Shown here one piece after another: positions 4,030-57,661 of a stretch of 57,661 bases of DNA. Position 1 is the stretch's first letter; the number at the start of each line of letters is the position of its first letter. The stretch is from positions 1 through 57,661 of IMG/VR virus record IMGVR_UViG_3300029268_000020; one strand, given 5' to 3'. The notes beneath the pieces were generated by a model that saw only the letters and a list, made by a program, of their open reading frames with translations, did no database searches and was not told the DNA's origin. Both the position numbers and the translations under genes were made by a program. Source of the DNA: a virus (lineage: Duplodnaviria > Caudoviricetes).

Positions 4030-4265
<236 letters not shown>

Positions 4266-29708: not shown

Positions 29709-29830
29709 TGAGGAATTGGAGATTGGAGATTGTAGATTGCGAATTGTAGATTGCGGATTGCGGATTGGGAGGAATTGCGGAATTGACCACGAAAGACACG
29801 AAGCACACGAAAGAGTGAGAGGTGAGGGCG

Positions 29831-31507: not shown

Positions 31508-31552
31508 GAAGCATGGGAAGCATGGGAAGAATCTGAAAGGGGACCGGCAAGC

Positions 31553-34500: not shown

Positions 34501-37500
34501 CCGCGAGGCGCACGAGGCGGCGTTCGTCAACGCCGAGAATTACGTGCGCAGCTACGCGAAGAGCGTGGGCTTGAATTACGACGCGATGCCGCGGGGCGAG
34601 AAGGAAGCTTATAAAAAGAAAGCCATCGAAGAGCACCGGCAGGACCTGACGGGAGAGAACCTGGTCAAGCCGGAGTTCTGGGAGCGCCTGGCCAAGGTTG
34701 ACCCGGGCGTGTTCCGGCGCACGGCGCGGGCGTTCATCCGGCTGCTGGACAAGATCAAGGAGATGCTGGGGATCGGGATGGATTACCAGGCCGAGCGCTG
34801 GCTGCAGCCGGCCAAGCTGGAGGCGCTGCGGGACAAGCTGGCGGGGATGCTGGGCGAGTATCAGCGGGCCAGCGGGCGGCTGGAGGATTTCAAGCAGCGG
34901 CGGCAGGGACGCCAGATGCACACGGTGCTCTCCTTCGCGGACATGAACAAGAGCACGGTGGCGACGCGGATCATGGACGCCGGCGGGCTGAGCGAAAACG
35001 CCGCGTTCGAGCTGAAGCACCTGGGGGCGTTCGAGGGCATGCAGCCGTGGCAGGTCAAGCGCCTGGCGCCGGAGGGAGGCGGGCCGGTGGACCTGGACGC
35101 GGTGGGCGAGCTGCTGCCGGCGTATCAGGAGCTCGGAGGGATATTCCGGGAGGTGGACAGTTACGGGCGGCCGGGCAAGCAGGACGTGCTGGACTGGCTG
35201 GCGGACAACATGCAGACGCGTTACTCGACGGGCAAACATTACCGGGCGGCGGAGAAGGCGGAGCTGAGCCGCGAGGAGGAGCAATACAACGCCGAACACG
35301 AGCGGGAATGGGCGGGGCTGAGTCAGGAGGAAAGGGAGGCGGCGGAGAAAAGCGCGGAGGGCGGAGTGCGGAGCGCGGAGGGAGAGGAAACGAAGGAAGA
35401 GTCGGATTTGCCGTTCATGGAGCGGAGAGGGAAGGGAGAAGAAGAAGAGCGGACGGGGGCGTCCGCGCTCCCAGGAGAGGACCTGGGGACGATCATGAAA
35501 GGGCGGCAGGGGGAATTAGAAGGACAAAGGACAAAGGACGAAGAACAAAGGGTGCGGGGGCAGGGGGAGCTGTTTCCGGGGGGAATGTTCGAGCAGGCGG
35601 CGGGGAGCACGCCGAGCGCGGAGGCGAAGGTCGGGAAGAAGACGGGGGACCGCAAAGGGCAGATTGCGTTTCAGGAGCGGCGGGGAGAAGCGGCGGCCAA
35701 GGCATTTACGCCGGATTACGATCCCGATAAAACAGGCGAGGTCATCCGGGCGTTGATTGAAAACAGGCCGGTGGCAACGGCGGATGCCTATAAAAACCCA
35801 CTGACGCGGCGGATGTTCGACAAGAAATATCGCGAGGCGCGCGTGCCGGCCTCCCGCGAGGCATTTGAGACTCTGGACAAAATTCCTGGCCGACTGTTTG
35901 CCGACTACATCCAACTCCAGGCCAAACACCCCGAAGAGTTTGCCACGGCACAAGAGGCACAGCGCCATGTGGAATGGGTCATGGAAGCACCCACCGATCA
36001 CCAGCCGGCCAGCAAGGACGGGGCGGTCATCTTCATGCGGCGCAACGGCGGAGACAAGGTGTCGATCGTCGAGTTTGAGAATCAAAAAGGCAAAGCGGTA
36101 AAAGACCGCGTCATCAGCGCCTATACGATGGATGCGGGACAATGGGAGTTTAAATTGCGGGGAGAGGAGAACGATCGGGGCGGGGTTTCCGAGCCCGGTC
36201 CTGCGAGTAAACCCGGCCAAGGCCAGGAACTCTCTCAGGGTGGTGGCGCGCCTTTCGACGCGCTTCGTCCCGATCCCAAAGCCAGTATTCCACCGGGAAG
36301 CCCGGAGGTCAAGAGTGAAGAGAGTTTGGGGACGTTTGAGGCGGGCAATCCGGACATCCGGATGCAGGAGCGGCGGAGTTATGGGGAGCTGGAGCGGGAG
36401 CGGCGGCAAATGAAGGAGACGGTCACGGCGGCGATCAAGGCGCCGGAGATCAAGGAGGTTGCCGAACAACTGAGCTGGGCGGACCAATATAAGGGCAAGG
36501 TGCGGGAGCGGAAGGCCAAGCTGGAGCAGACGCGGCGGGCGGTGGAGCGGCAGTCGCAGGCGCCGTACGGGCAGGACACGTCCGGCTGGAAGGTGCGACC
36601 GAAGAAGCAGGCGGACGGGGGAGTCAAGTGGGAGGTGCAGGACAAGGGCGGACAACTGATGGCCGGCCCTTTCACGACCGAGCGCGAGGCCGAGGCGGCG
36701 CGGGACAAGGCGCGCGGGGTGGTCACGGTGGCGCAAGGGGCGGCCGAGCTGAGGCGGCGGATCGAGAAGAGCTCGGTCAAGGCAGAGCAGGAGCGCGCGC
36801 TGGCGACGGCGAACATGACGATTGAGAAACTGATGGACGGGCCGCTGGAGGCGGCGAAGCGTCCGCAAACGATGAGCAAGGCGATGCAGGTGCTGATGAG
36901 GGTTTCGGGCGACGTGCGGGAAGAAGAGGTCCTGGCCGAAACGCGGCCGACCGAGGATGTGTTTCGCGCCGGGCTCAAGCAACTGGAGGAGAGTTACGGG
37001 ACAGACACGCCGCGCCACAAAGAGGCGCTGCAAACCTACCGCAATCAGATCGAACAGGCCGATCAGTTGGCCGCCGCGATGCAGGCGGACGGCCAGGCGA
37101 CGGAGGCGGCCTACGAAACGGCGCTCAGGGGTTTGTTCCCGAACGCGCCCAAGCGGATCGCCGGGTTGAAGCGGGCCAACGGCGGCAGCGCCAAAGAGGC
37201 CGTGAACAAGGTGCGCGAGGTTTTCGACAAGGAAATGACCCGGATCACGGCCAAGGACACGACGCGGCTGATGGCGCGGGTCAACGCCAAGGATTTATAT
37301 AACGACGCCCAGACGCCGGGGCACAATTACCGGCAGCAGTGGGAAATGTTGACGGGCCAGGATGAAGCATTCCGCGAACTGCGGCGGAAATACAGCGAGG
37401 CGCTGGCGGCGCTGCGCAAAACAGAGGCGGAAATCAAGGCCGGCACGGGAGGCCGGACGGCTCCGACCGAGGAGCGGGCGCTGGTGGCGCATTTGCGGGG

Positions 37501-40639: not shown

Positions 40640-43605
40640 TGGCGCTGCTGATCGGCACCGACAACGCGACCGCCCCCGGCGTGGCCAGCCTGCCGGTTTT
40701 TGAATCGTGGACCTATTACCGCCGCGCCTACCACGAATGCGACGATGCCGGCTGCCTCAAGCGCTATCCGGGGCTGGCCGCCATGGCCGAGCACAAGGGC
40801 TGCCGGGGCGTGGGGCTGCGGGCGAGCAGGTTGTCGGCGTTGAGTTTCTGCCAGGCCAATATCGAGAGCCACAACACGCTGACTGAAAAGATACGGCTGG
40901 CCCAGTCGCTGATCGAGTTTTACGCGCTGATGGTGGCGGGCATCGGGCGCACCGGCATCCCGCCCACCAGCGGCACGGACGAAACTTATAAAGACTACCT
41001 GATCAACCGCACGACGCAGCCCTGGAAAGAGTTCGGGCCGTGGGATGTTGACAGCTACAGCGCCGAATACCTGGACCTGGCTTACACGATCGGCGGCATC
41101 GATTCAGATCCCACGTGTTTCCGGGACAACCATGGCCGGCCCTTCACCTGGTCCGGCTGGGGCGTGCTGGAGTTTTGCAACCTGGCCGGCGTGAGCAACT
41201 CCAAACTGGGCCACACGGCGCGCCTTTACACGTCTTACTACGATCCTGACGAGACCGAATCCGGCATATTCCGGCTGTATAGTGTCGCCGCTAATATCCC
41301 CACCGGCGGGCGATTGTGGGAGAAACTCGATCCGGACGCGCCGATCCAGGTGCGGCTGCGGGCCTGGACTGCGCCCGGGCGCGAGCCGTGGATCGCCGTC
41401 GAGGATGCCTATCCCGCCTATGCCGTGCCGACCGTCTGGGGGCCGGGCGCCTGGCCCGTGGCGCCCGAGGACATGGTGGCGACGACGCTCTTCACGGGCC
41501 AGGCGATGATCCCGCAGTACGGCGGAACGACGATCATCGGCCTGGGCGGGACCGCCTATTATTCCAGCGTCGCGCTGATCGAAATTTACGACGGCACCGA
41601 CTGGGTGCCCTATGTCGATCCCGATCATCCGATTGAAGAGTTGCTGCGCAATGAGCTGAATGTCGACACGGGACTTTATGAGGCAACCCTGCATCTGGAG
41701 TTAATGGATCTGAGCGCCGCCCAAGATCTGCGCGCGACGATCCTGCTGCAGTACGTCAACCCCGTGGAAATCCCCGCCGAAACCTGGGCCTACGCAGTCA
41801 GCCGTGACCGCTGCGACCACGCCCGACCCGATTACAGCGACAGCGTTGGGGTCAAACAGGAGGGCGAGATCGCGCGCTGGCACTGTGACCAGCACCAGGA
41901 CATCACGGAGGCCATCGCCACCTATACCGCCATCGCCGCGGCGCTGGGTTCCTCGCATCCCAGTTACGCCACCTACGTCGCGCTGATCGCCTTGTATAAC
42001 AGCTTTCTGACCCACTTCGCCACACGCCTGGGGGTGTGCTGGAATCAGGACTGCCCCTTTTTCCAGGTGGCGAAGGTCCCGATCGGAACCAACTTTACCG
42101 CGGCCATGACGCAACTGATCCAGGACCGGCCGTTCCGGCGCGACGAATCGCGCCTCCAGACCGACCTGGGGGCAGTCTCCACCTGGGCCGTGATCCGGGT
42201 GGGCACGCCTTCGGTGGACTCGCTGGCCGGCACCGATCGCAAAACGGCCGGCATTAATTTTGACCGGCGCGACTGGCTTTTCGGATCCCAGCCGACGCTG
42301 GGAAAACTGGTCATGGCCGGCGCGCTGGGCGAATATGTGAGCGTCAGCAACGGGCTGGAATTTTTGGAGGGCACGCACATCAACGAAGCCGGGCCGGCCG
42401 CGGGCCTGCGCACGACCGTCGCGCCGCGGACCGATTTCGCCGAGGAGACGGCCGACGACGACAACGATCCCAACTGCGCCTTTCGCAACTCGATGACGTG
42501 CGGCCAGAGCAGCCTGGACCGCCATTCGGGCGCGCCGCTGGGGAAATTGTTTGTCCAGAATGAATACCCGCTGACCTGGCTCCAGTGGCCGATGCTGGTG
42601 AACACGCCGGGCCTGGTGCAACGCCGCGAGGTGGGGACGGCCGAGGTTGGCTACTGGACGCCCGACTTGAGGCACCAGGAATCAGAGGACGGCGAAACGG
42701 CGTATCATCTTAAATTAACCATCGGGACCGACGTGCGACCGCTGACGTTGAACACGGACGGCCACGCGCTGGCCAGCCTGGGGACCGCCACCGTGCAGGA
42801 GACATTCTCGCCGTGCGTCATCACGACTCCCAACGTCTCCGGAGCCGTGCTGGTCGGACTGGCCCTGGTCCACCGGCAGGACCAGCTCCTGACCATGGGC
42901 GGCACCGGCGAGGATGACCGCATCACGAACGTGTGGACGGGCGGCACCAACGTCTATCCGCACAACCGGCGGCGGATGCGCTCGCCGGTCAGCCGGGCCT
43001 CGGGGACCGGCGCGGGGGCCGGAGAGGGGTTCCTGCACGCCGGGCGGGCGCTGCGCATCCTCGAGGACGCGGACTTGCCCGAGGCGCTGTGGGGGCGTCT
43101 GCTGCCCGTGCGGCGCGCCCTGGACAGCAATCCCGACGGTCCGCACGAAGCCCTTTACCGCACCGTGCACGATCCCGAAACCGAGAGCAATGAAACGCTC
43201 GTCGCGGCGGCGCTATCGGTGGGGGGCGACGTGGCCCAGGGCTACAGCGGCGCCAGCGTGGACGCGCTGGAGCACTGCGACACCATCGAGGTGGAGGTGG
43301 AGGCCGATACCGCCGCGGTGATCGAGGCCACGGAGGCCGGCTGGGCCCGCGCCTTTGACATCGTGCAGGGAGCGCGGGCCGTCGCGGCGCCGGGCGAGGA
43401 GCATTTTTGGGCCAGCGATCCCACCGCCGTGACCGATACCGAAATCGTGCCCGCCGTGCTCTATCATACCGGCGAGCTTTATTTGGAGGCTTTCACGCAG
43501 TGCCCCACCGTGGTGATGCGGGTGCTGCGGCTGGTGCGTCTGTTGTCCCAGAGCGGCGACATCGACACTATCGGCCCCACCATTTCCAAGCTGCTGGAGG
43601 AATAA
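40639..43605 (+). CDS. Large hypothetical protein (988 aa)
   Basis: Long ORF, no motif recognised. Confidence 0.8.
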   Translation: MALLIGTDNATAPGVASLPVFESWTYYRRAYHECDDAGCLKRYPGLAAMAEHKGCRGVGLRASRLSALSFCQANIESHNTLTEKIRLAQSLIEFYALMVAGIGRTGIPPTSGTDETYKDYLINRTTQPWKEFGPWDVDSYSAEYLDLAYTIGGIDSDPTCFRDNHGRPFTWSGWGVLEFCNLAGVSNSKLGHTARLYTSYYDPDETESGIFRLYSVAANIPTGGRLWEKLDPDAPIQVRLRAWTAPGREPWIAVEDAYPAYAVPTVWGPGAWPVAPEDMVATTLFTGQAMIPQYGGTTIIGLGGTAYYSSVALIEIYDGTDWVPYVDPDHPIEELLRNELNVDTGLYEATLHLELMDLSAAQDLRATILLQYVNPVEIPAETWAYAVSRDRCDHARPDYSDSVGVKQEGEIARWHCDQHQDITEAIATYTAIAAALGSSHPSYATYVALIALYNSFLTHFATRLGVCWNQDCPFFQVAKVPIGTNFTAAMTQLIQDRPFRRDESRLQTDLGAVSTWAVIRVGTPSVDSLAGTDRKTAGINFDRRDWLFGSQPTLGKLVMAGALGEYVSVSNGLEFLEGTHINEAGPAAGLRTTVAPRTDFAEETADDDNDPNCAFRNSMTCGQSSLDRHSGAPLGKLFVQNEYPLTWLQWPMLVNTPGLVQRREVGTAEVGYWTPDLRHQESEDGETAYHLKLTIGTDVRPLTLNTDGHALASLGTATVQETFSPCVITTPNVSGAVLVGLALVHRQDQLLTMGGTGEDDRITNVWTGGTNVYPHNRRRMRSPVSRASGTGAGAGEGFLHAGRALRILEDADLPEALWGRLLPVRRALDSNPDGPHEALYRTVHDPETESNETLVAAALSVGGDVAQGYSGASVDALEHCDTIEVEVEADTAAVIEATEAGWARAFDIVQGARAVAAPGEEHFWASDPTAVTDTEIVPAVLYHTGELYLEAFTQCPTVVMRVLRLVRLLSQSGDIDTIGPTISKLLEE

Positions 43606-46355: not shown

Positions 46356-47315
46356 TCAGGAATTAAAATATTCTTCGCGAATCCGAACCAATTGTTTCTT
46401 AATCAAGAATAAGAGTTTATTGAAACTGATTTCCGAAAAGACGCGAACGACAATGAATAAGAAGAATGGAATTGCGCAACAGGCATCGACCAGCGCCCAT
46501 TCATCGCGCTTCATGTGCACCGGCAACACGGGATTAAAGAGAATAAGAATTACCAAGAAGACCAGCGAAATTGAAAGCGCCCAGGGGGTGAAAGTGGCCT
46601 TGGTCCAGGCGCCGGGCGACGGGGCGGATTTCTCAAGAAAAAGGAAAAGACCGTAAAGAACATAAAATAAAGAGGCGGCGGCGACGTAAACGCGCAATAG
46701 TTTATAGAAATTATCTGGAACGTCTTCGCAAAATGCCGCAAAAAGAAGAAAAGGAATGGCGAGCAGCGCCGGCAGACAGACGCGAATCATATTTAAATAG
46801 TTAAGGGGATTGGCGGATTCTTTTTCTGAGATTATTTGTTTTAGTGGTTCCGACGTTTTTAGATCAGCATTAGATTCTTCGGTCAACAGCGTTTCGTCCA
46901 GGACCTCTTCTTCCCGCATGTCGCCCGAAACCTTCCCCAACATCCGCATCGCCTTGTTCCGCATCGCCTTACTCATCGTTTTGGGGCGCTTCGCCAACCC
47001 CAGCGCGTGATCCCGACCCGCCTCGGCCTCGCGCTCGGTCTGAAACGGCCCGACCATTAGCGCGCCGTTCTTGTCCTGCACCTCCCACATGACCGACCCG
47101 TCCGGCTGCTTCTTCGGCCGTACCTTCCAGCCGGTCGTGTCATGCCCGAACGCCTTTCCGCTGTCCTTAATTACCCCCTGTCGTCTCAACGCTTGTTCGA
47201 CCTTCCACTCTTTCGCCTTGGCCTTGTATTGCTCCGCCCAATTAAGCGATGGACTGTCTTGCTCCGGTTCTTGATTACTGTAAATACGCCGTTCCTGGAA
47301 ATGATATTCAGGCAT
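46356..47315 (-). CDS. Chimeric membrane protein: N-terminal copy of an ejection-protein segment plus C-terminal multi-TM (DUF6804-like) domain
   Basis: GWKVRPKKQ.DG.V.WEVQDK shared with the 2860-aa protein; FY.LLR...ILFNPV.PVH..R..W..VD membrane domain; starts 9 nt after the cI stop. Confidence 0.85.
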   Translation of the reverse strand: MPEYHFQERRIYSNQEPEQDSPSLNWAEQYKAKAKEWKVEQALRRQGVIKDSGKAFGHDTTGWKVRPKKQPDGSVMWEVQDKNGALMVGPFQTEREAEAGRDHALGLAKRPKTMSKAMRNKAMRMLGKVSGDMREEEVLDETLLTEESNADLKTSEPLKQIISEKESANPLNYLNMIRVCLPALLAIPFLLFAAFCEDVPDNFYKLLRVYVAAASLFYVLYGLFLFLEKSAPSPGAWTKATFTPWALSISLVFLVILILFNPVLPVHMKRDEWALVDACCAIPFFLFIVVRVFSEISFNKLLFLIKKQLVRIREEYFNS

Positions 47316-47324
47316 TAAACAAAA

Positions 47325-48008
47325 TCACTCCGTTTTGGTGCCGCAGACGTAGACGCCCCAGAGGCGGGCGCCGCGCGGGCAGGGGATGGGCTTGAAGGCC
47401 GGGTTGATGCCTTCGAGGACGCCGGAGTCGCGCCAGACCTTGAAGGTGTGGCCTTCGCCGGGAAGCTCGATAATGACGGATTGGCCGTCGTGGACCAGGG
47501 ACTTGTCGCGGGTCTGGCGCACGAAGATCAGATCGCCGGGATAGTGGCGCGGGGTCATGGAGGCGCCCTGGATGCGCAGGGCGACCAGGCCGCGGGGATC
47601 GACGCCGGGATAAATCAAGCGCCAAACTTCCAAAGGTAGATCAATGTGGTCCAGTTCGGTCTCGAGCAGGACCGAATCGGTTGGCGCGGATGGGATGCCG
47701 GCGGCGACTTCGCCGAAGATTGGAATGGCGCAGGTATGGCGGGACGGAAGTTCGGGGCCGGGATGACTGCCGGGGGGATCGGACAGTGGAAAAGCCGTGT
47801 AAACATTGAGGCTGAGCTTGTGGCAGACCTCCACGTAAAAAGCCAACGGCATCTTCGCATGGGGCACAACGGCGTTTCGATGAATGGTTGTGCGCCCGAT
47901 TCCGAGAACCGCAGCCGCTTCTTCACGCTTCATGGCGAGGAGCTTCGACTCAAGTCGTTTTACGGGCTCTTCCCCAAAAAGTTTAGATGCTGAAATTTTT
48001 TTTGTCAT
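47325..48008 (-). CDS. cI: CI-like repressor (HTH plus S24 peptidase)
   Basis: IPIFGEVAAG.P, ALRIQGASM.P...PGDLIFV, TFK; divergent from a small HTH gene. Confidence 0.9.
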   Translation of the reverse strand: MTKKISASKLFGEEPVKRLESKLLAMKREEAAAVLGIGRTTIHRNAVVPHAKMPLAFYVEVCHKLSLNVYTAFPLSDPPGSHPGPELPSRHTCAIPIFGEVAAGIPSAPTDSVLLETELDHIDLPLEVWRLIYPGVDPRGLVALRIQGASMTPRHYPGDLIFVRQTRDKSLVHDGQSVIIELPGEGHTFKVWRDSGVLEGINPAFKPIPCPRGARLWGVYVCGTKTE

Positions 48009-49596: not shown

Positions 49597-50130
49597 ATGA
49601 CGGCAGTATGCGGGATGGGGCGGCGGCGGGCGAGTCGAAAAAGCGAAGATGTATTTTACGCCCCGCCGGAGGGGTTGGGGGCGGCGCTGGCGGAGGACCT
49701 GCGCGAGGCGCGCAAAGAGCGCGGGGGCGTCAACGAGGCGGTGGCGGCGAGCTGCGGGGTGGAGCCGATGACGGTCTATACCTGGAGCGAGCGGGCGGGT
49801 CACCAGTGGACGACGGGGCAGATCGAGGCGGTGATCGAGGCGACGGGGGGACGCCACGCGCTGGTCTGGCTGATGACCCAGGCGGCCAAGCGGGAGCAGG
49901 GAGCGGCGGCGGCGGGGACGGGGACGGGGCCGTTCGACGTGCTGGAGCGGCTGGGGCGGATCGGGGAGGGGCTGGCGGCGCTGACGCGGCGGGCGGCGGA
50001 GTTTCTGGCGCCGGGGGGGCGGTCGCCGGGAGAGTTTGACGCGCGCGAGCGGCGGGCGTTGGCGGCGCTGACCGAGGCGAGCCAGGCCGAGCTGGTGGGG
50101 GTGCGGACGCTGATCGCGGGGTTGGAGTGA
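49597..50130 (+). CDS. CII-like regulatory protein
   Basis: GGVNEAVAASCGVEPMTVYTW...IEAVIEATG; FDARERRAL. Confidence 0.65.
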   Translation: MTAVCGMGRRRASRKSEDVFYAPPEGLGAALAEDLREARKERGGVNEAVAASCGVEPMTVYTWSERAGHQWTTGQIEAVIEATGGRHALVWLMTQAAKREQGAAAAGTGTGPFDVLERLGRIGEGLAALTRRAAEFLAPGGRSPGEFDARERRALAALTEASQAELVGVRTLIAGLE

Positions 50131-50180
50131 TTTTTTAACCACGGATGGGCACGGAAGGCGCGGATGAGAGGTGAAGGGCG

Positions 50181-50387
50181 ATGTGGACGGTGGTGACGGA
50201 ACAGGACCTGGAGGCGGTGGAGCGGCTGGCGGGCGGGATGGCCGAGCTGTGCCCGGACTGCGGGGGACTGTGGGAAGTGCAGGTCGGGCGGGTGGTGCGG
50301 ACGTGCTGCGGCAGGCAGCGCGAGCGCCTGGAGCGGCTACTGGCGCTGGGGCGCGGGGAACTGGAGCGCGAGGCGCGGGCGGCATAG
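50181..50387 (+). CDS. Small zinc-ribbon protein
   Basis: CPDC...TCC. Confidence 0.6.
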   Translation: MWTVVTEQDLEAVERLAGGMAELCPDCGGLWEVQVGRVVRTCCGRQRERLERLLALGRGELEREARAA

Positions 50388-50481
50388 GGGAGAGGGATGT
50401 TGACCACGGATAGCGCGGAGGGACGCGGATTGATACCGGGGGGAGAGGGATTTTTACCACGGATAGCGCGGAGGGACGCGG

Positions 50482-51009
50482 ATGAAGATGGAAGCGGAAC
50501 TGGAAGTTCTGAATCTGGAGGCGGCGCGCGAGGAGCTGGCGCGGCTGCAGGAGATCAACGAGGCGCGTGATGCGCGGATCGCGCGGCTGGAGCGGGAGGC
50601 GGGGGAGCTGTGGGAGGCGCTGGCGCCGTTCGCGAAGCTGGGCGCCGAGTTGCCGGAAATGTATCCGGGGTTTTATCTGCTGGAGCACAAATGTTCATGG
50701 CCGAGGGCGGATGAATTCCGGCGGGCCGCGGCCGCGCTGGGATTGATCGGCGAGGGATGCGGCCGAGGCGCCCGGGCCGAGACGAAGGAGCCGGCTGAAG
50801 CCGGGACAACGAACCCGCGGCCGGGGGAGATCGTGGCGGCGCTGTGGGAGGGGGCGGCGGCGCGGATGACGAGGCTGCGGGAGGCGTATGAGGAGTTGGG
50901 CGGGGCGGGCGCGCCGGCGCTGTTCATCGCGCTGCGGCCGCTGTGGCGGCGCTACGAGGCCGGAGAGCGCAGCGAGGAGCTGTGGACGGCGATCATGGAG
51001 CTGGCGTGA
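50482..51009 (+). CDS. Hypothetical protein
   Basis: Coiled-coil N-terminus; in-frame PAEAGTTN repeat. Confidence 0.65.
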   Translation: MKMEAELEVLNLEAAREELARLQEINEARDARIARLEREAGELWEALAPFAKLGAELPEMYPGFYLLEHKCSWPRADEFRRAAAALGLIGEGCGRGARAETKEPAEAGTTNPRPGEIVAALWEGAAARMTRLREAYEELGGAGAPALFIALRPLWRRYEAGERSEELWTAIMELA

Positions 51010-51064
51010 GGAAGATCCATGGCCACGAAAGACACGAAAGACACAAAAAAGGGGAGGGACGGCG

Positions 51065-51253
51065 GTGAAACACAAGCGGACCGAAGTGGAGTATGTGGAG
51101 TTGCCGCCCTATTTGTGGACGCGGCCGGAGAAGGCGGCGCGGGCGGCGCGGAATTTTTTGATCATGCTGGGGATCGTCGGGCTGGGGCTGGCGGGGGCGC
51201 TGGCGCTGTGCCTGAGATACAGCGCCTGGCTGCGGGAGCTGGGGGGGAAATAG
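51065..51253 (+). CDS. Small single-TM protein
   Basis: FLIMLGIVGLGLAGALALCL; GGAGGG before GTG. Confidence 0.55.
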   Translation: MKHKRTEVEYVELPPYLWTRPEKAARAARNFLIMLGIVGLGLAGALALCLRYSAWLRELGGK

Positions 51254-51325
51254 CAAGAAAGTAGCTGAGTAGCTGAGTAGCAAAGTAGCTGAGAAATTAA
51301 CCACGGAGGGCGCGGAGGGGCGCGG

Positions 51326-51601
51326 ATGAACAGGCTGCCGGAAAGCGGAGAGGAGATCCCGGATCGGGTCTGGCACGCGGCGTGCGACACGTGCCTGGAG
51401 GCCGTCGAGGACATGAAGGGCAGGATCGAGGCCGGGGCGCGCGGGGACAAGCTGCGCGCCGTGCTGCTGGGCAACCTGGCCGCGGCGGTAAGCATGGCGC
51501 TGCTGATTGGGGAAGAGCTGGCGCTGGCGAAAGTGCAGATCAAGGAACTTAAGAGCGAGCTGGAGCGGCGGGGCGGCGGCAAGCGCAACGGCGACGGCTG
51601 A
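51326..51601 (+). CDS. Hypothetical protein
   Basis: ATG supplied by a nonamer repeat; 91 aa. Confidence 0.65.
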   Translation: MNRLPESGEEIPDRVWHAACDTCLEAVEDMKGRIEAGARGDKLRAVLLGNLAAAVSMALLIGEELALAKVQIKELKSELERRGGGKRNGDG

Positions 51602-51684
51602 AATTTAACCGCGGATGGCGCGGAAGGCACGGATGAGGGAGAGGGATTTTTGACCACGGATGGGCACGGAGGGACGCGGATGAA

Positions 51685-52330
51685 ATTGGCCGGGAAGACG
51701 GCCTGAAGGAATCCCCACAACAAGCGGGGTGGATAAGCTGGATGCAAGCCAGAGGCGGAGGGGACGTGCCGGACAACCTGGTTGGAGCCGGCGGGTCAGC
51801 CAAGCGGACGTGAAGACCAGGACGCATCCACCCCCAATGAGGCAACCGGACGCGCCGGCCGAAGGCCTGAGCTGGTCTCAGGCCACCGAGGTAGATCGGC
51901 CGTTCCGGAGTGGACCGCGAAGCCGTTGGAAATTGGTGGAGCGGTCCATGGCGCGGGCGACACCGGCCCGGATCGGACTAACCATGGAAAGACCGATTGA
52001 AAGGGCGTGACAGCCGGCAGAGACCGGCAACAAGTTTGGGCCGCGACGTCAATGCACATCAAGCGAGAGCGCCTGGCAATGCCAGGCGTGCGGCGGCGCG
52101 GCCCAAAATGACCTGACGGGTAAACGGTGAAACCCGGACCATGAGGGGATAACGCCAGGGCTTAAATCTCTGGATAATGCCTCAAGGAACTGTGGCAATC
52201 CTGCACCGTGACAGGCCGGGAGAGACCGGCACCTTTCCATACGCCGCCGGGCGCGGGCCGGGCGACGCCACAAACAACCGACGAGGCGGAACGCAGCATG
52301 GATGTTACAGCCGGGACGAGTCGGGGAGAT
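51685..52330 (+). ncRNA. Candidate large structured non-coding RNA or RNA-element cluster
   Basis: Several 8-11-bp stems, recurring GTGACAG-GCCGG-SAGAGA-CCGGC motif, no convincing ORF; strand assumed from the operon. Confidence 0.55.
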
Positions 52331-52808
52331 TGCAAATCAGCAATTCAAAATTTAACCACGGATGACGCGGACAACACGGATGGAGGAGCGGACGGGGACG
52401 TCCGCGCTCCCATGAAATTCGTGGTTCGAGGCAGCGCCGCGCCCTGGACAGTTCGCCGGGCTTGGCGACGGGAAACCCCAATCCCGCCCGTCGCGAAGTC
52501 AGTCCGGCCGGACCTTTGATTCCCCGGAGGTCAACGGCCGGCGTCCGCGCCAAGGCGCGGCGGCGACCGGGAGCCGGGCGCGGCGCTGCCTGGAGCCACG
52601 GAACAATTGTAGATTGTGGATTGTAGATTGCGGATTGGGGGAGCGGACGGGGGCGTCCGCGCTCCCAGGAGAGTTTGTGCGGCGGGCCGGCCTTCCTTGA
52701 ACACGAACGCGGAGAACGACTGAGGCCCACCTTAAAACCGCTACGCGACCGAACGGTCCGCCGCACAAGAAGAAGGACAAAGGACAAAGGACAAAGGACG
52801 AAGGACGC

Positions 52809-53141
52809 ATGGTGAAGGATGACATGGCGGCGGAGCGGATGGCGTGGGCGCCGGCGGAGGTGCGGATCCTGGGGCTGGTGCGCGAGCTGCGCGAGCTGCT
52901 GGGGACGATGGAAGGGGTGGAAGTGCGGGGGACGGCGCCGGAGGGGCTGGCGCTGCGGGTGTGGCTGCCGGGACGGGAGTGGGTGCAGGCCAAGTTGGGA
53001 GCCCAGGTGACGGCGGCCTGCGCGAGGCGGTGCGAAGGGTGCGTGAGGGCAAGGAAGGGCAAGGAAGCGCGACCACGAAAGACACGGAAAACACGAAAAA
53101 TAATTAAAGAAGAGGGCGAGGGCGGGAAAGCGGGTGGTTGA
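52809..53141 (+). CDS. Hypothetical protein
   Basis: Coding-like ORF with repeat-derived C-terminus. Confidence 0.55.
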   Translation: MVKDDMAAERMAWAPAEVRILGLVRELRELLGTMEGVEVRGTAPEGLALRVWLPGREWVQAKLGAQVTAACARRCEGCVRARKGKEARPRKTRKTRKIIKEEGEGGKAGG

Positions 53142-53142
53142 G

Positions 53143-54216
53143 ATGGGTCGGACGCGGGAGGAGATGTTGGAAGATAGCGGGCGGACGGGGATGCTGGACG
53201 TGCGGCCGTGCGAGGCGGAGACGTGCGACGGGGGCTGCGGGACGGTCAGGCAGGCGCACCGGCCATGGTGGACGCGAGACGGGCTGTTCGGCTACTGCGA
53301 CAAGTGCCGGCGGGAGGAGGGCGGCGAGGGCTGGCGGGCGATGGACGAAGGACAAAGGACAAAGGACGAAGGACAAAGAGGGGAGGGGGAGAGGGAGAAA
53401 GGTGAGAAGGGGGAGGGGGAGAGGGAGGGAGATGAAACCACGGATGGCGCGGAAGGCGCGGATGGGAAAGAGGGGACGGGGGAGAGCGCGCGCGAGTGGT
53501 TCGAACGCCAAACACGGCACGAAATTGAGAATTTTGACAAAGTGCGAAAACTGGGGAAGATGCGGGAAGAAGTGGATACGAAGGGGCTGGTGCTGAATTT
53601 CAGGCCGTGGGGAGAACGGGGAAGGGGTAAGGACAAAGGACAAAGGGGGAAGGGGGGGGAGGGTAATCATTTGGAAACGGAGGAGACAGAGATGAAGGAA
53701 GGAAACGGCAAGAAGCGGGGCGGGTGGACGATGAGTCCGGAGGCGCGGGCGCACGTAAGCGAGGGGATAAAGCGGGCGCATGCGAAGAAGGCCGAGGAGC
53801 GGCGGGCCAGGCTGATGAAGCTGGAAAGTACAAAGGACGAAGGACGAATGGGGGAAGGAGCGGCGGTGGGGAACGGGGAGCGGGAGCGGACGGGGGCGTC
53901 CGCGCTCCCAGGCAAGGCGGGGCGGGGGCTCAAGGGACGAGTGGTAATCACGTCGACGCCGGCGCCGGAGACCCTGGGTGAGGAGACGCGGCGGGCGCTG
54001 GAGAAGATGGGGCGGGCGGCGGTGCGGGCGATGCAGGGCGGCCCGGCCGGCGTGGAGCACGCGGAAAACGAGGAGACGGTCGGGCTGAGCGAGGCGCTGG
54101 CGGCGCTCAAGGTGTTGGCGCGGCTGGGCCGGGAGCATCCGGAGACGCTGGGGACGCTGCGGCGGATGAACGAGGCGGACCTGGTGGAGTTGCTGGAGGC
54201 GGCCGCGGCATTATAA
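53143..54216 (+). CDS. Repeat-rich multi-module hypothetical protein
   Basis: Cys-rich N-terminus, NUMOD3-like MSPEARAHVSEGIK, in-frame repeats. Confidence 0.6.
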   Translation: MGRTREEMLEDSGRTGMLDVRPCEAETCDGGCGTVRQAHRPWWTRDGLFGYCDKCRREEGGEGWRAMDEGQRTKDEGQRGEGEREKGEKGEGEREGDETTDGAEGADGKEGTGESAREWFERQTRHEIENFDKVRKLGKMREEVDTKGLVLNFRPWGERGRGKDKGQRGKGGEGNHLETEETEMKEGNGKKRGGWTMSPEARAHVSEGIKRAHAKKAEERRARLMKLESTKDEGRMGEGAAVGNGERERTGASALPGKAGRGLKGRVVITSTPAPETLGEETRRALEKMGRAAVRAMQGGPAGVEHAENEETVGLSEALAALKVLARLGREHPETLGTLRRMNEADLVELLEAAAAL

Positions 54217-54330
54217 CCACGGAAAGGCCCAACCACGAAAAACGCGAAGCACACGAAAGACGGGAAAGAAATTGACCGCGGATGACGCGGAAGGCGCGGA
54301 TGGGGAATTTGGGCGCGGGGAGGCGCGAAA

Positions 54331-54924
54331 ATGATTGAGGCCTCGATACGGGAGTTGTTGCTGAAGATCAAGGCGTTGGCGGAGCGCGGGGCCAGCGAGG
54401 GGGAACGCGCGGCGGCGCGGGGGATGCTGGAGCGCAAGCTGGCGGCGCTGAAGATCACGCTGGCGGACCTGGAGCATGAAGAGAAGGAGATCGTCTGGTT
54501 TATCTACGCCAACGAGCAGGAGCGCCGGGTGATCGCCCATATCATGATGCGGCTGTTCGACCTGGATTCATTCTACAAGTCGCCCCTGAGGAAGAAGCGG
54601 GCGGGCTACGAGCTAACCAAGGCGCAGACCATCGAGGCGGCGGAGTGGGTGCGGCATTACCTGAGCGCCTTCCGGGAGGATTGGCGCGTCGAGACCCTGG
54701 CGTACAAGAAGCGGCTGAGCCTGATGTCGGTGGCGTTCGTGAATAAACACAAATTATTTTCCACGAATGAAGCGGTTGGGGGCGGTCCCAAAAAGAAAAC
54801 CGACATCGAGGAGATCAGGAGCATCCTGGTCATGATGGAGGGCCTAAAGGAGGTCAATCCGCCGCGGGCGAAGATGAGAAGCGGAGAGCCGGCGCGGGCG
54901 ATCGGCTGGGAAAAGGGGAAGTAA
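54331..54924 (+). CDS. DUF2786-like phage protein
   Basis: LLKIKALAERGASEGERAAAR.ML. Confidence 0.7.
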   Translation: MIEASIRELLLKIKALAERGASEGERAAARGMLERKLAALKITLADLEHEEKEIVWFIYANEQERRVIAHIMMRLFDLDSFYKSPLRKKRAGYELTKAQTIEAAEWVRHYLSAFREDWRVETLAYKKRLSLMSVAFVNKHKLFSTNEAVGGGPKKKTDIEEIRSILVMMEGLKEVNPPRAKMRSGEPARAIGWEKGK

Positions 54925-54995
54925 AAATTAACCGCGGATGACGCGGAAGGCGCGGATGGGGATTTCAGATTTCAGATCGTAAATTGGGACTGTGA

Positions 54996-57661
54996 ATGGG
55001 GAAGCGGATGGGGTGGCCGGGGTTTGTGAAGATCCGGGTGCTGAATACGCCGGCGGAGACGGGGATGGGGCGGCTGCACGTCGTCACGATCTGGATCAGG
55101 CCGCTGGCGGGAACCGGAGATGAACGGCGGGAATTGGGGGCGTTGCACGAGCTGTTGCGGGAAGGGGGATTCGGTTATGAAATATGGGCGCTGGCGGGGG
55201 AATGGCACTGGACGGCGGACAACGGCGAGAAATCGCGGGCAGCCTATGACCGGGCGGCGGGAAGCCGCTGGGTAAGCCGGAGGTGGCAGGAAGCGTCGAC
55301 GAGCGATGGACCAAGGACAAAGGACGAAGGACAAAACGCGGACGGGGAAGAGACGGACGCCATGAAACCAGGGGAAAGAAAAGAGGGTGGGGAGATGACC
55401 ACGAAAGACACGAAGCACACGAAAAAAGGGACGGGGCCGGCGGCGGACGGTTCCGAGGCGGAAATCATACGTAAGGCCGACGCGGGGGATTGGAAATGGG
55501 AGGTTGGGCAACGGGTTCGCGTGAAGGATCGGGACGGCTATAATTTTGGCGGGAAGATCTGGGAGCGGGTGATTTTTCGGGGACGGCGGGTGTACCGGCT
55601 CGAAGGGCCGAGTTTCAGACTGCCGACGGACAAGGAGATTGAATGGGAGGAAGACGAGCTGGAGCCGATCCCGCAGCACCGAGCGGGGACGTGCCAGTAC
55701 TGCGGCTGTGAAGACGAGCACGGATGCGAGGAGGGGTGCTCGTGGGTCGATCGAAAGCGGACGGTGTGCACCTCGTGCGTGGCGGAGGCGGAGACGGAGG
55801 CGAAGGCGAAGGGTGAAGGACAAAGGACAAAGGACAAAGGACGAAGGACAAAGGAGGACAAAGGACAAACTCCCGGAGAAACCACGGATGACGCGGATGG
55901 CGCGGATGGGGAAGAAGGATTGGCCACGAAAAACACGAAGCACACGAAAGGAAGCGGACAAGATGTCCGCGCTCCCAGTAGGTTGACGGCGATCCTGGAC
56001 GGGTTGGCGGCGGAGACGGAGCGGGTTTACCTGGTGCCGCTGGACCAGATCGAGGCGCATCCGAAGAACCCGCGGCACATCAATATCGCCAAGCCGGACA
56101 AGGCGCTGCTGGAGCTGGCGGAGTCGATCAAGGCCCAGGGGGTGAAGGAGCCGGCGCTGGGGCGGCCTTTGCCGCTGCCGGAAGGACCGGGGACGAAGGA
56201 CAAAGGACAAAATAAGATCCAGTTGGTGTTCGGGCATCGGCGCTGGCATGGCTGCCGGTTGGCGGGGGCGGCGTCGCTCAAGATGTACGTGCGGGAGATG
56301 GACGACATCGAGGCGCTGGAGCTGATGAGCCTGGAGAATTTGCAGCGCGAGAATCTGACGCCGCTGGAGGAGGCGGCGGGGATCCGCAACCTGACGGAGC
56401 TGGGGCGGACGCACGGGGAGATCGCGGCGGAGCTGGGCAAGCCGCTCAGCTTCGTGGCGCGGCGGGCGGCGCTCCACCGGCTGGACGAGCGCTGGGTCAG
56501 GGCGCGCCAGGGTGAGGACAAGCGCCTGGACGTGAGCGGCTGGGGAGCGAGCCACCTGGAGCTGGTGGCGTCGTTGCCCGCGGAGATGCAGGCCAAGCTG
56601 TACGGAGACCTGAGCGGGAGCCACTGGTGGGGAGGGGGCGGTCCGGGCGGCTGGAGCCTGGGCGAGCTGAGCCGCTTCATCGGCCAGGCGCTGCACCTGG
56701 TCAAGCTGGCGCCGTGGGGCGTCAAGGCGGAGGAGCTGGCCGGCGAGTGCGCCTGCCAGGTGTGCTCGCGGCGCAGCGGCTGCCAGCCCGAGCTGTTCGA
56801 GTCGCTGGCGGGGGAGGCCGCGGAGGACGAGGAGCGAGGGAATTGCAACGGGGAGATCGTGGGCAAGGACGACACGTGCCTGGATCCCAAGTGCTGGGAG
56901 CGGAAAATGGCGGCCTGGCTGGAGCGCAAGGCCGGGGAGCTGAAGGAGGAGCACGGCGACCAGGTCAAGCTGGTGCGGGAGAGTTACAGTCCGCCGAGCC
57001 CGGCGCAGGCGAAGGCCAATCCGCTGCTGGCCAAGACGGTGTACAAGGGCGACCTCCGGGCGGCCAAGAAGGGCGAGGCGGGGGCGTTCCCGATCTTGCA
57101 GGTGGAAGGAGCGGCGGCGGGCCAGACGCAGTGGATGAAGGCGGAGAGTTATGCCGCGAACAAGCCGGGACTGGCGGCGCCCAAGACGCTGGCGCAGAAG
57201 CGGAAGGAGCTGGAGGGGCGGCGGCTGATCAGGAGCTGCGAGGAGGTGATCGGGGAGCTGGAGCGGCTGATGGCTGACAATGGCAAAGGGATCGACCTGG
57301 AGAAACTCCCCGGCGGCTGGTTTCAGCGGACGATCGCGGTGGTGGTGCTGCGAGGCTGCCGGGCCCAGGGCGAGCAAAAGATCTGCTGCGCCAAGAACTT
57401 CCCGAAGGACATCGAGGCGCTGGCGGCTGACGTGCCCCGGCTGGATATGGCGCTGGTGGCGCGGGCGATGGACACGATGCTCCGGGAGTTGAACGATGAT
57501 GTGAAATACAAACTTCACGAACAAGCGCAGAAGACGGCCGCGGCGATCTGCTGGGTGTGGGGCTGGCCGTGGGCGGCGTTCCTCAAGCGGGGCGAGGCGG
57601 CGATCCCGGAGCCGAAGGCGTGGGCGGCCCAGGAAAAGGACAAAGGACAAAGGACAAAGGA
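54996..57661 (+). CDS. ParB/RepB/Spo0J-family protein with N-terminal extensions; continues across the join to 254
   Basis: Manual translation: VPLDQIEAHPKNPR..LLELAESIKAQGV.EP..GHRRW..ENLQRENLTPLEEA; absent from the ORF track because its stop is beyond the window end; true start uncertain. Confidence 0.85.
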   Translation, partial: MGKRMGWPGFVKIRVLNTPAETGMGRLHVVTIWIRPLAGTGDERRELGALHELLREGGFGYEIWALAGEWHWTADNGEKSRAAYDRAAGSRWVSRRWQEASTSDGPRTKDEGQNADGEETDAMKPGERKEGGEMTTKDTKHTKKGTGPAADGSEAEIIRKADAGDWKWEVGQRVRVKDRDGYNFGGKIWERVIFRGRRVYRLEGPSFRLPTDKEIEWEEDELEPIPQHRAGTCQYCGCEDEHGCEEGCSWVDRKRTVCTSCVAEAETEAKAKGEGQRTKDKGRRTKEDKGQTPGETTDDADGADGEEGLATKNTKHTKGSGQDVRAPSRLTAILDGLAAETERVYLVPLDQIEAHPKNPRHINIAKPDKALLELAESIKAQGVKEPALGRPLPLPEGPGTKDKGQNKIQLVFGHRRWHGCRLAGAASLKMYVREMDDIEALELMSLENLQRENLTPLEEAAGIRNLTELGRTHGEIAAELGKPLSFVARRAALHRLDERWVRARQGEDKRLDVSGWGASHLELVASLPAEMQAKLYGDLSGSHWWGGGGPGGWSLGELSRFIGQALHLVKLAPWGVKAEELAGECACQVCSRRSGCQPELFESLAGEAAEDEERGNCNGEIVGKDDTCLDPKCWERKMAAWLERKAGELKEEHGDQVKLVRESYSPPSPAQAKANPLLAKTVYKGDLRAAKKGEAGAFPILQVEGAAAGQTQWMKAESYAANKPGLAAPKTLAQKRKELEGRRLIRSCEEVIGELERLMADNGKGIDLEKLPGGWFQRTIAVVVLRGCRAQGEQKICCAKNFPKDIEALAADVPRLDMALVARAMDTMLRELNDDVKYKLHEQAQKTAAAICWVWGWPWAAFLKRGEAAIPEPKAWAAQEKDKGQRTK
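57536..57661. repeat. Terminal direct repeat, right copy
   Basis: Identical to 5-130. Confidence 0.95.

Follow-up and report, generated by a model that had tools for sequence, protein, structure and literature searches.

A conserved two-helix RNA module at the ends of two probable non-coding units in a temperate-type lake-water phage

A gene-free stretch in the early gene block

The window analysed here, the whole 57,661 nucleotides of IMG/VR virus record IMGVR_UViG_3300029268_000020, derives from a lake-water phage, and the record is 86% complete. It contains a gene-free gap of 1.2 kb between the open reading frames (ORFs) at 51326–51601 and 52809–53141. The flanking called genes from 49597 to 57659 are all on the + strand, the closest − strand genes being at 46356–48008, and the stretch sits intergenically on the sense strand of the genes around it. 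A CI-like repressor is encoded on the − strand (47325–48008), a CII-like product is weakly matched at 49597–50130 (PHROG E 0.0019), a ParB-like domain follows downstream, and terminase and head genes come after wrap-around. The record is that of a temperate-type phage, and the gene-free part lies in its early, rightward gene block.

An initial annotation had described 646 nt of this gap as a stretch with no credible gene, bounded by nonamer repeats and lacking the usual skew, and all three descriptions hold. The three longest internal + strand ORFs match no Pfam and no PHROG family at E ≤ 0.01, dispersed nonamer-type repeats lie on both sides at 51601–51685 and 52348–52391, and the GC skew, approximately 0.25–0.42 in the flanks, falls to 0.02–0.17 within the stretch. 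The excess of A over T remains high inside it despite the lowered GC skew. Copies of the nonamer repeat are spread across the whole record, every one of them on the + strand. Neither a sigma-70-like promoter nor a + strand terminator turned up in a scan of 51200–53000.

The elements between 51601 and 52806 are listed here; R1 and R2 are covariance models of the end-module and Pa is its outer helix, as described below.

51601..51685, + strand: dispersed nonamer-type intergenic repeats, CACGGATG-like, forming the left boundary (repeat families D1 and D2)
51686..51953, + strand: body of unit 1, with a 9-bp long-range helix (51726–34/51826–34) and hairpins at 51864–84 and 51911–48 (fold z −2.2)
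51954..52035, + strand: end-module copy 1 (R1 36.3 bits, E 1.7e-8; R2 34.0 bits, E 5e-8)
52035..52107, + strand: long hairpin opening unit 2, an 11-bp stem around an 8-bp hairpin at 52070–88 (inverted repeat I8, stems, fold)
52118..52237, + strand: end-module copy 2 (R2 33.4 bits, E 7.3e-8; R1 35.0 bits with a shorter Pa)
52232..52347, + strand: tail without fold signal, containing the claimed degenerate motif copy at about 52303–52326 (z +0.2)
52348..52412, + strand: second nonamer-repeat block, then one dispersed 27–32-nt GC hairpin (D1–D3, I10)
52413..52605, + strand: separate, very stable branched element with a closing helix of about 26 bp (inverted repeat I2)
52668..52772, + strand: third small structured element with a 15–16-bp closing helix (inverted repeat I6, z −3.0)
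52773–52806: heptamer tandem repeats, then the next ATG at 52809

The five stems named in the initial annotation are all present and perfect (51726–34/51826–34, 51864–71/51877–84, 51911–18/51941–48, 52035–45/52097–107 and 52070–77/52081–88). Among 1000 dinucleotide shuffles 0.4% contain five stems of this kind; at least five are found in 9 of 286 genome windows, the flagged one included. Folded as one, the 646 nt reach −287.3 kcal/mol, compared with −257.5 ± 8.1 kcal/mol for 20 shuffles (z −3.66 on the + strand, −2.58 on the − strand). Folding better than shuffled sequence is found for the whole stretch and also for unit 2 (z −3.2), but not for the tail. For unit 1 alone z is −2.1; since six coding control stretches range from −1.8 to +1.1 on the + strand, with one reaching −2.5 on the − strand, unit 1 folds no better than the best controls. 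Sliding 150-nt windows of minimum free energy (MFE), with GC content and skew regressed out, gave no outlier in the region. The branched element at 52413–52605 is outside the coordinates first annotated yet within the same gene-free stretch; its MFE is −133.6, where shuffles give −93.4 ± 4.5 (z −9.0 on the + strand, −4.2 on the − strand). The dispersed GC hairpin that precedes it has ten copies in the record.

Neither the flanking proteins nor the large terminase has a close relative among viral or genome contigs: the 91-aa left neighbour matches itself alone among 1.84 billion representatives, and the nearest terminase relative is 61% identical. The AAGGACA heptamer array is common to six viral contigs, and the region is absent from the five that were searched. 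Four lake or freshwater sequencing runs contain only identical fragments of the region, with zero variants.

Architecture, covariation and distribution of the end-module

Each of the two units is closed by a copy of the same module, as the initial annotation had proposed for its repeated motif. The module consists of an A or G at the 5' side, a helix Pa around a variable insert, a GACA linker, a hairpin Pb, and then an A. The first pairs of Pa are A-U and C-G, its 3' strand ending in GU and its 5' strand starting with AC after the unpaired A or G. Pb has 5 bp with G-C pairs at both ends and a hexaloop (N)AGAGA. The insert enclosed by Pa ranges from 3 to 150 nt, and in minimal members the Pa loop is 3–5 nt and there is no body. 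Secondary module copies have GAAAGA or GAAGAGA loops and GACGG linkers. The invariant letters of the module are partly set by the search patterns with which members were gathered.

In copy 1, Pa pairs 51960–64 with 52004–08 (5 bp with one A-C mismatch, preceded by G); the linker and first base of Pb, GACAG, occupy 52009–13; and Pb pairs 52013–17 with 52024–28 around the loop CAGAGA (52018–23), with the A at 52029. The C-first loop is seen in further family members too. In copy 2, Pa pairs 52124–29 with 52204–09 in a perfect 6-bp helix that follows an A and encloses a 74-nt insert; GACAG lies at 52210–14 with one additional G in the linker, and Pb pairs 52215–19 with 52226–30 around the loop GAGAGA (52220–25), with the A at 52231.

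Covariance models R1 and R2, built without the window's own copies, recover both (36.3 and 35.0 bits with R1, 34.0 and 33.4 bits with R2, E about 1e-8), and the next best match inside the window scores 13.9 bits. Of the three occurrences claimed for the motif, those at 52007–52029 and 52208–52231 are therefore borne out and the third is not: the supposed degenerate copy at 52303 is missed by R1 at E ≤ 10 and by R2 at E ≤ 5, and by eye the site differs from the family in its linker, in its loop and at one pair of the stem.

Once homologues were gathered, the covariation check that had been called for gave a strong signal in both helices. In alignment A2 (27 sequences, the rows having been selected for pairing) all five Pa pairs change on both sides, and none of 500 shuffles reaches the score. 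The Pb test avoids such pairing-based choice of rows: its search pattern placed no constraint on the four inner pairs of the stem beyond requiring the third 5' base not to be G, which excludes the consensus stem. In this set 109 of 120 matches are fully paired, compared with about 25 after shuffling, and there are 30 distinct stem combinations. G-U pairs (31) far outnumber A-C pairs (3), and the fold therefore belongs to the sense strand. In alignment A3 (93 sequences) 98.2% of cells are paired and the covariation score is 0.533, against 0.123 for shuffles. The two copies in the window almost certainly belong to a real, covarying and uncatalogued family.

The family is widespread. Metagenomes yield at least 120 contigs with an exact 21-mer of the module, and IMG/VR likewise at least 120; a 23-mer is found at 87 places in GTDB genomes, whose record titles name many phyla; and a 50-nt member matches 33 cultured-phage records. 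Carrier groups include Proteobacteria, Cyanobacteria, Chloroflexota, Planctomycetota, Acidobacteriota and Bacteroidota. The module is also found in virulent T1-like phages and in other unrelated ones, with up to 3–4 copies within 500 nt. Plain BLASTP found no protein family common to at least three of four module-bearing genomes.

As the novelty claim had required, Rfam 15 gives no match at gathering score in the window. At E ≤ 10 only chance-level matches appear in 51500–52900, and the motif draws no Rfam match in 20 + 12 loci or in a consensus-like member. Full-text literature searches found neither the module's 14-nt core nor a phage GAGAGA stem-loop. A 2023 catalogue of 10,006 viral candidate RNAs (PMC10690425) does not contain the motif in its searchable supplements, though its alignment files 1 and 2 and file 4 may hold it.

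Only the end-modules, roughly 45–120 nt, have relatives; the unit bodies show no similarity to anything among 330 fetched loci. This speaks against the first description of the stretch as one large structured RNA. The fold of the 646 nt as a whole, the A-rich loops and the balanced G and C would suit such a molecule of about 650 nt, but relatives were found for the two end-modules only, the tail lacks a fold signal, unit 1 scores inside the spread of the coding controls, and in hundreds of other phages the same module closes short units that stand on their own. We consider a single large RNA most improbable. The stretch is non-coding, structured and modular, and probably represents two tandem non-coding units (about 51686–52029 and 52030–52231) with a shared end.

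Position of the module relative to neighbouring units

The module has a characteristic position. Immediately 5' of the motif, cover by same-strand ORFs falls to 0.32; it is regained within 200 nt downstream. Near 421 module instances, 69 of 69 tRNAs are on the same strand; a tRNA begins 1–14 nt after the module in 30 of the 421, and the closest upstream tRNA ends at least 39 nt away. An ATG-led ORF begins within 12 nt after the module in 52 of 406 instances, and at 13–45 nt in a further 119. In only 2 of the 52 closest cases is there a Shine-Dalgarno-like word between module and ATG. Family-wide, positions +1 to +7 downstream of the module are poor in G and rich in C/U, with U mildly enriched at +3 to +7. 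A pyrimidine run complementary to the loop lies within 14 nt downstream in 123 of 418 instances, compared with 7–17% at other offsets.

These features could suggest that the module is a leader element of the following gene or tRNA, giving translational, riboswitch-like or ribosome-recruiting control of the next unit. Start codons 4–12 nt past the module lack a Shine-Dalgarno-like word in 50 of 52 cases, the loop and closing G contain a GGAG-like word, the pyrimidine partner of the loop would permit a small pseudoknot, the base composition at +1 to +7 fits, and conservation across phyla with no shared protein is typical of ligand-binding RNAs. However, the downstream genes are mutually unrelated (primase, exonuclease, adaptor, HNH endonuclease and clamp loader among them), and many modules, including both in the window, are followed by tRNAs or further non-coding units. 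The possible pseudoknot partner is present in just 29% of instances, and the spacing from loop to ATG would be 15–21 nt. In E. coli prophages, moreover, similarity to the locus of phage mEp390 stops exactly at the 3' end of the module, and this breakpoint leaves the module with the upstream part. We regard a leader function as unlikely. In one set of related contigs the module instead moves with the downstream sequence, and membership of the upstream unit is therefore not universal.

Tandem arrays of 2–4 units, 105–215 nt each, are seen at other loci as well as in phage mEp390. The suggestion that the stretch is an array of small RNA units fits this pattern, such units lying 105–215 nt apart in other phages. 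In mEp390, an E. coli phage, a pair of modules (27444–27527 and 27656–27717) lies beside the repressor in the early operon, and in phage Alexa, likewise temperate, the pair is next to the integrase gene, the element lying 126 nt after it. Cronobacter phage CS01 carries a copy at 20470–20527. One mEp390 gene annotated as a 'hypothetical protein', gp36, is overlapped by a copy of the module.

Arrays of units with unrelated bodies and a common end would also be expected if the units were trans-acting small RNAs, in which the function would reside in the variable body and the module would be a 3' handle bound by a stabilising or chaperone-like factor, or else a decoy or sponge for a host protein. 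The places beside the repressor in mEp390 and the integrase in Alexa are often expressed in lysogens, in keeping with such a role. Yet the minimal members have no body, their Pa loop being 3–5 nt, and many members are wedged between a gene and the start codon or tRNA that comes next, so we rate this possibility as rather improbable.

Alternatively, the conserved entity could be DNA, namely the end of a mobile or recombining cassette or a single-stranded hairpin site, conserved through a recombinase or horizontal spread. The near-identical sequence in a patchy set of unrelated phages and phyla, the mosaic breakpoints exactly at the 3' end of the module, the closing helix around a variable 'cargo' and the proximity to the Alexa integrase would all be accounted for. 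The excess of G-U over A-C pairs argues against a double-stranded palindrome, though not against sense-strand single-stranded DNA. The module, however, invariably runs in the same direction as genes and tRNAs (0 of 69 tRNAs are opposite), no recombinase or other protein is common to the four carrier genomes, and no target duplications were noticed in passing. A DNA-level element seems very improbable.

A possible unit-boundary signal and its relation to known systems

The explanation we favour, tentatively and on the strength of the module's position, is that it is a cis-acting RNA marking the boundaries of transcript units for processing and end protection. On long phage transcripts the module would act as a 'unit-end' signal, placed at the 3' end of a coding or non-coding unit immediately before the next tRNA or start codon. 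Most likely it would direct or tolerate cleavage just 3' of Pb, leaving the upstream RNA with a protected and specifically recognised 3' end. With such cleavage and end protection, the two units in the window would be released, or at least insulated, as RNAs of about 200–350 nt. Because the module is near-invariant across unrelated hosts and its carriers share no phage protein, its partner would be a component common to all hosts, or else the RNA itself. A mere protective hairpin does not need a conserved loop and linker, which argues that something more specific is involved.

The extreme form of this idea is a new, host-independent class of RNA, a small self-cleaving or otherwise self-sufficient 'insulator' that cuts and caps transcript units, used by phages of at least 12 bacterial phyla and cut just before the next tRNA or start codon. 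We consider this unlikely, but if true it would account for the near-invariant linker and loop, the missing shared phage protein, the patchy spread across phyla and the tight abutment to the next unit.

The early-gene RNase III hairpins of T7 and 'tRNA punctuation' are cis-acting folded processing signals. The module resembles them in lying at unit boundaries of polycistronic transcripts, on the sense strand, and it would likewise leave the upstream RNA ending in a hairpin. Those signals are recognised by shape and have little sequence in common, whereas the module has a near-invariant linker and hexaloop, a 5-bp helix and a second helix enclosing 3–150 nt, and its cleavage is putative. The PeSLs (promoter plus stem-loop) of T4-type phages are mobile regulatory cassettes, lineage-specific and promoter-based. 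Like PeSLs, the modules are small conserved intergenic cassettes at gene boundaries that coincide with mosaic recombination joints; unlike them, they cross phage families and host phyla and show RNA-type covariation.

A put- or nut-like antitermination element for the early operon, as initially suggested, would modify RNA polymerase and sustain transcription through untranslated stretches. The put RNA of phage HK022 consists of two adjacent hairpins and works without a phage protein; a nut site of the lambda type has boxA and boxB ahead of terminators and goes with an N-like protein of the phage. The module, with two hairpins and a short conserved linker between them, is similarly a short two-part cis RNA found in early operons of temperate phages (the window and mEp390); its presence in untranslated tRNA arrays also fits, and conservation across hosts is consistent with a partner as conserved as RNA polymerase. 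However, with filters off R1 has no match at E ≤ 1 in positions 23000–34000 of HK022, which we take to be the early region with the put sites (unannotated in the record), so identity with put is not upheld. The module also occurs in virulent T1-like and unrelated phages, in tRNA arrays and in tandem arrays of 3–4 copies within 500 nt; antitermination does not require its tight abutment to the start of the next unit, and no terminator was found downstream within 51200–53000 of the window. No antiterminator family was found among the 37 window ORFs scanned against PHROGs. Antitermination as the function seems to us improbable, though the module may work in a put- or nut-like way.

Theta ribozymes, as described in PMC10879173, are minimal HDV-like ribozymes found beside phage tRNAs and in Caudoviricetes non-coding regions, and they share with the module a small conserved RNA, sense orientation with genes and a tie to tRNA gene ends. 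We reject an HDV-like or theta identity: the minimal Pa loop of 3–5 nt is too short for a nested double pseudoknot, the tRNA lies 1–14 nt downstream of the module whereas the theta cleavage site is at the 3' end of the upstream tRNA, and no Rfam ribozyme model matches. UG27 arrays, according to a preprint (bioRxiv 10.64898/2026.09.22.753630), need a reverse transcriptase (RT) and two accessory proteins alongside; they resemble the module's arrays as phage arrays of diverse structured units of roughly 150 nt with short conserved motifs and gain and loss. A UG27, retron or DGR-type template was rejected too: the record, 86% complete, has no match to RVT_1 (PF00078), and the annotations of mEp390, Alexa and CS01 list no RT.

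Several further candidates were discarded. A CRISPR-like repeat, for which near-identical repeats of 25–40 nt at regular, short spacing would be expected, does not fit two copies 201 nt apart with about 23 nt in common, a structured intervening sequence, and unit lengths of 105–215 nt elsewhere. An intrinsic terminator, in which a run of U comes straight after a GC hairpin, is contradicted by the lack of any + strand terminator-like site in 51200–53000 and by the mildness of the U enrichment. A pseudoknot from the loop to downstream sequence is not a defining feature, its partner being present in 123 of 418 instances only, and a shared phage protein partner was dropped, none occurring in at least three of the four genomes.

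The 650 nt at this locus are thus resolved into two defined units, and two further structured elements are added to the early operon. A motif of about 40 nt, near letter-perfect across many phage groups and in no curated RNA library, points to an unrecognised rule of phage transcript organisation. Should it prove to be a signal for processing or insulation, the annotation of phage genomes would benefit, for example at mEp390 gp36, some of the mosaic joints between phage modules would be explained, and synthetic operons could gain a compact, host-independent part. If the module is bound by a universal host factor or is itself catalytic, this is testable in E. coli phage mEp390 and Cronobacter phage CS01.

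Two RNA units in a gene-free stretch

The module, a closing helix Pa followed by the linker GACA and a hairpin Pb with an (N)AGAGA loop, was searched for with two covariance models, R1 and R2, built without the window's own copies. They find exactly two copies in the window, the next hit scoring 13.9 bits:

51954-52035, module copy 1: R1 36.3 bits, R2 34.0 bits; Pa with one mismatch, loop CAGAGA
52118-52237, module copy 2: R2 33.4 bits; Pa of 6 bp without mismatch, enclosing a 74-nt insert

Among 330 fetched loci the bodies of the two units (approximately 51686-52029 and 52030-52231) have no match outside the module. Given these two hits and bodies without relatives, the flagged stretch, 51685-52330, is best described as two tandem units with a spacing of 201 nt, rather than the one large RNA of the initial annotation. 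Its second proposal, an array of processed small RNAs, comes closer: the most fitting view is of RNA units arrayed one after the other, each closing with the repeated module, while the processing itself is suggested by position only. That the units are small RNAs sharing the module as a common handle is distinctly unlikely. A third, degenerate copy placed at 52303 goes unreported by the models at E <= 5-10; apart from it, the earlier observation is real.

The units lie in 1.2 kb separating the ORFs 51326-51601 and 52809-53141, a gap whose three longest + strand ORFs match no Pfam or PHROG family, in agreement with the original view that no credible gene is present. The usual skew is indeed missing (GC skew 0.02-0.17 inside vs approximately 0.25-0.42 in the flanks) and the excess of A over T is retained, as would be expected of base-paired RNA whose loops are rich in A. 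All five proposed stems are perfect and in place. Among 1000 shuffles, 0.4% produce five such stems, and across the genome no more than 9 of 286 windows of this size have as many. The 646-nt windows at 25001-26050, 42601-43450, 14601, 27601 and 41001, mostly inside long ORFs, have five to seven perfect stems (at least 8 bp, within 120 nt), equalling or exceeding the flagged stretch. Folding better than shuffled controls holds for the whole 646 nt (z -3.66 on the + strand, -2.58 on the - strand) but is uneven by parts: unit 2 reaches z -3.2, whereas unit 1 (z -2.1) falls inside the range of six coding controls and the tail, 52232-52347, is at z +0.2.

Two further structured elements, both delimited by repeat blocks of the intergenic type, follow in the same gap, so that the 1.2 kb looks like four consecutive RNA slots:

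52413-52605, branched element of approximately 190 nt closed by a helix of approximately 26 bp: fold z -9.0 on +, -4.2 on -
52668-52772, hairpin of 105 nt with a closing helix of 15-16 bp: z -3.0; followed at once by a heptamer array and then the ATG 52809

The first gives the strongest fold signal measured in the window, and has neither an Rfam match nor a relative among the fetched loci. Duplexes as long as its closing helix are of the kind cut by RNase III.

The phage and its intergenic repeats

The IMG/VR record (57,661 bp) is classed as linear and estimated to be 86% complete. Its + strand is rich in G and A throughout and carries most called genes, with exceptions that include 46356-48008, the CI-like repressor and its neighbour. 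The PHROG and Pfam scans give the gene layout of a temperate tailed phage, which therefore places the flagged stretch within the early, rightward gene block:

47325-48008, - strand, CI-like repressor
49597-50130, weak CII-like match (PHROG E 0.0019)
Within 54996-57659, ParB-like domain
Past the wrap-around: nucleotidase, replication initiator, both terminase subunits, portal or adaptor protein, major head protein

Neither a sigma-70-like promoter nor a + strand terminator was found within 51200-53000. Several lake and freshwater metagenome runs contain near-identical pieces of this phage. Synteny yields no related locus, as the flank proteins and terminase have no close relative among viral or genome contigs: the protein neighbouring the flagged stretch is an orphan, and the closest terminase relative is 61% identical. 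At 4043-4252, just 5' of a replication-initiator-like gene (4373-5350), the hexamer CGACGG stands in 35 tandem copies, which may be an origin/iteron region or an in-frame peptide repeat.

Short tandem repeats occupy nearly all intergenic gaps, on the + strand throughout: heptamers (AAGGACA in approximately 20 arrays, ATTTCAG, ATTGTAG, GAATGCG, AATGGAG), the nonamers CACGGATGN and CACGAAAGA, and the octamer AGTAGCTG. Because these repeats lack stop codons, mechanical ORF calling merges adjacent genes, as in the giant ORFs 31553-40135 and 54996-57659. The nonamer blocks said to bound the flagged stretch are seen on both sides of it and belong to + strand repeats dispersed over the whole record, whereas its core is unique within the genome. 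Viewed on the - strand, the nonamer blocks 51609-51623, 52356-52370 and 51301-51315 resemble intrinsic terminators (a GC hairpin, then a T-rich tail) and might stop antisense transcription. A GC-rich hairpin of 27-32 nt, GGAGCGGACGGGGNCGTCCGCGCTCCC, occurs in ten dispersed copies, often adjoining repeat arrays, with no U run 3' of any of the ten.

100-135, 596-666, 6446-6479, 20555-20630, 29715-29768, 52606-52637 and 52773-52806, + strand, examples of gaps with tandem repeats
52381-52412, 52636-52667, ~1684, 30167, 31816, 33793, 33918, 34006, 35447 and 53882, + strand, GGAGCGGACGGGGNCGTCCGCGCTCCC hairpin

Anatomy and spread of the module

At its 5' end the module has an unpaired base, A in 73 and G in 19 of 93 sequences. 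The first pairs of Pa are A-U in 87 and C-G in 81 of 90 distinct rows, and its insert ranges from 3 to approximately 150 nt; the linker GACA, Pb (5 bp, G-C at both ends), the hexaloop GAGAGA, an A and usually a C follow. The invariance of linker, loop and stem is partly by design, because the search patterns fixed one or other of them; secondary copies found by the models have loops GAAAGA and GAAGAGA and linkers GACGG.

The covariation first called for is present. All five Pa pairs vary on both sides (27 sequences, in rows chosen for pairing). Pb was examined without presupposing pairing, leaving the four inner stem pairs free and demanding a third 5' base other than G, which rules out the consensus stem: 109 of 120 viral hits are fully complementary, vs approximately 25 after shuffling the 3' arms, in 30 distinct stem combinations. 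There are 31 G-U vs 3 A-C pairs; it is therefore the single-stranded sense strand that folds, whether as RNA or as DNA, which speaks against a double-stranded palindrome. In 93 sequences aligned by fitting to the model, 98.2% of cells are paired and the covariation score is 0.533, vs 0.123 for shuffles.

A pattern from the two motif copies matches at least 120 metagenome contigs, which come from widely differing habitats, and an exact 21-mer at least 120 IMG/VR contigs. A 23-mer occurs at 87 places in species-representative genomes, counted anywhere in the genome, prophage or not; read from genome titles, these span Alpha-, Beta- and Gammaproteobacteria, Cyanobacteria, Planctomycetota, Chloroflexota, Acidobacteriota, Bacteroidota, Saccharibacteria, Spirochaetes, Actinobacteria, Clostridiales, Myxococcota and others. 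A 50-nt member matches 33 cultured-phage records, including the lambdoid E. coli phage mEp390, T1-like Cronobacter phages, and Stenotrophomonas, Pseudomonas, Rhodobacter, Acinetobacter and cyanobacterial phages. Arrays elsewhere have 2-4 units per locus, spaced 105-215 nt. In phage Alexa one or two copies lie just 3' of the integrase gene, and in mEp390 two adjoin the repressor gene. The second of these, at 27656-27717, scores 19.6 bits with R2 (E 0.0013), and its Pb stem is fully compensated. This copy overlaps the annotated 'hypothetical protein gp36' (27501-27743), an ORF that is possibly not a genuine gene.

Comparison of the window, the fetched loci and a consensus-like member with Rfam 15 gives no matching family, as the novelty originally proposed would have it. 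Neither the core sequence nor a phage GAGAGA stem-loop was found in the full-text literature; the motif is also absent from the searched part of a catalogue of viral candidate RNAs from 2023, which may still contain it elsewhere. Judged by its sequences, the module represents a phage RNA family that is widespread and covarying, found in no catalogue searched.

A reverse-transcriptase template array such as those of UG27, which need that enzyme beside them, is unlikely, because the record has no RVT_1 match and the cultured carriers no annotated reverse transcriptase.

Position and possible function

Cover by same-strand ORFs drops to 0.32 immediately 5' of the module and is back up within 200 nt 3'. 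ARAGORN places 69 tRNAs near 421 distinct instances, none on the opposite strand; in 30 instances a tRNA starts 1-14 nt 3' of the module, mostly 3-6 nt, and the nearest upstream tRNA ends at least 39 nt 5'. In 52 of 406 instances an ORF opening with ATG begins no more than 12 nt away, 50 of them without an intervening Shine-Dalgarno-like word; in a further 119 it begins at 13-45 nt, and 78 of these have such a word. A role as leader of the next unit, or as its ligand sensor, would suit the starts that lack a Shine-Dalgarno-like word, as well as the loop-complementary pyrimidine run in 123 of 418 instances. However, the downstream genes are unrelated to each other, in metagenome loci being ordinary phage genes of many kinds (PHROG family in 21 of 52 ORFs), and the next unit is often a tRNA or non-coding, which makes a leader unlikely. 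The put- or nut-like antiterminator of the initial annotation is improbable, and R1 finds no likeness at E <= 1 within HK022 23000-34000, the stretch taken to include its put sites.

In a metagenome phage tRNA array that has the module between tRNA-Tyr and tRNA-Ala (709-1053 of the fetched locus), ARAGORN also predicts a tmRNA-like gene with a tag peptide. In Cronobacter phage CS01, an element of approximately 160 nt (2587-2756 of the fetched locus, record ~20242-20411) lies approximately 60 nt 3' of the module in the same intergenic gap. It matches 480 phage records, including P1, D6, T1-like and Vi01-like phages, in most of them unannotated; its hits to permuted tmRNA models are only weak and below threshold.

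Between E. coli prophages and the mEp390 locus, similarity breaks at the module's last base: one genome has the upstream part and the module, four only the part that follows. An end of a DNA-level cassette is very improbable. The dip in ORF cover, the adjoining tRNAs and starts and the prophage breakpoint fit a cis-acting boundary signal, and from position only we tentatively favour, at slightly below even confidence, such a unit-boundary signal on long phage transcripts. The module would close one unit and the next would begin at once; cleavage would fall just 3' of Pb, and the upstream RNA would retain a protected, specifically recognised end. BLASTP finds no protein family common to three of four carrier genomes, and the letters are near-identical across unrelated hosts, so the expected partner is either a component common to all hosts or the RNA itself.
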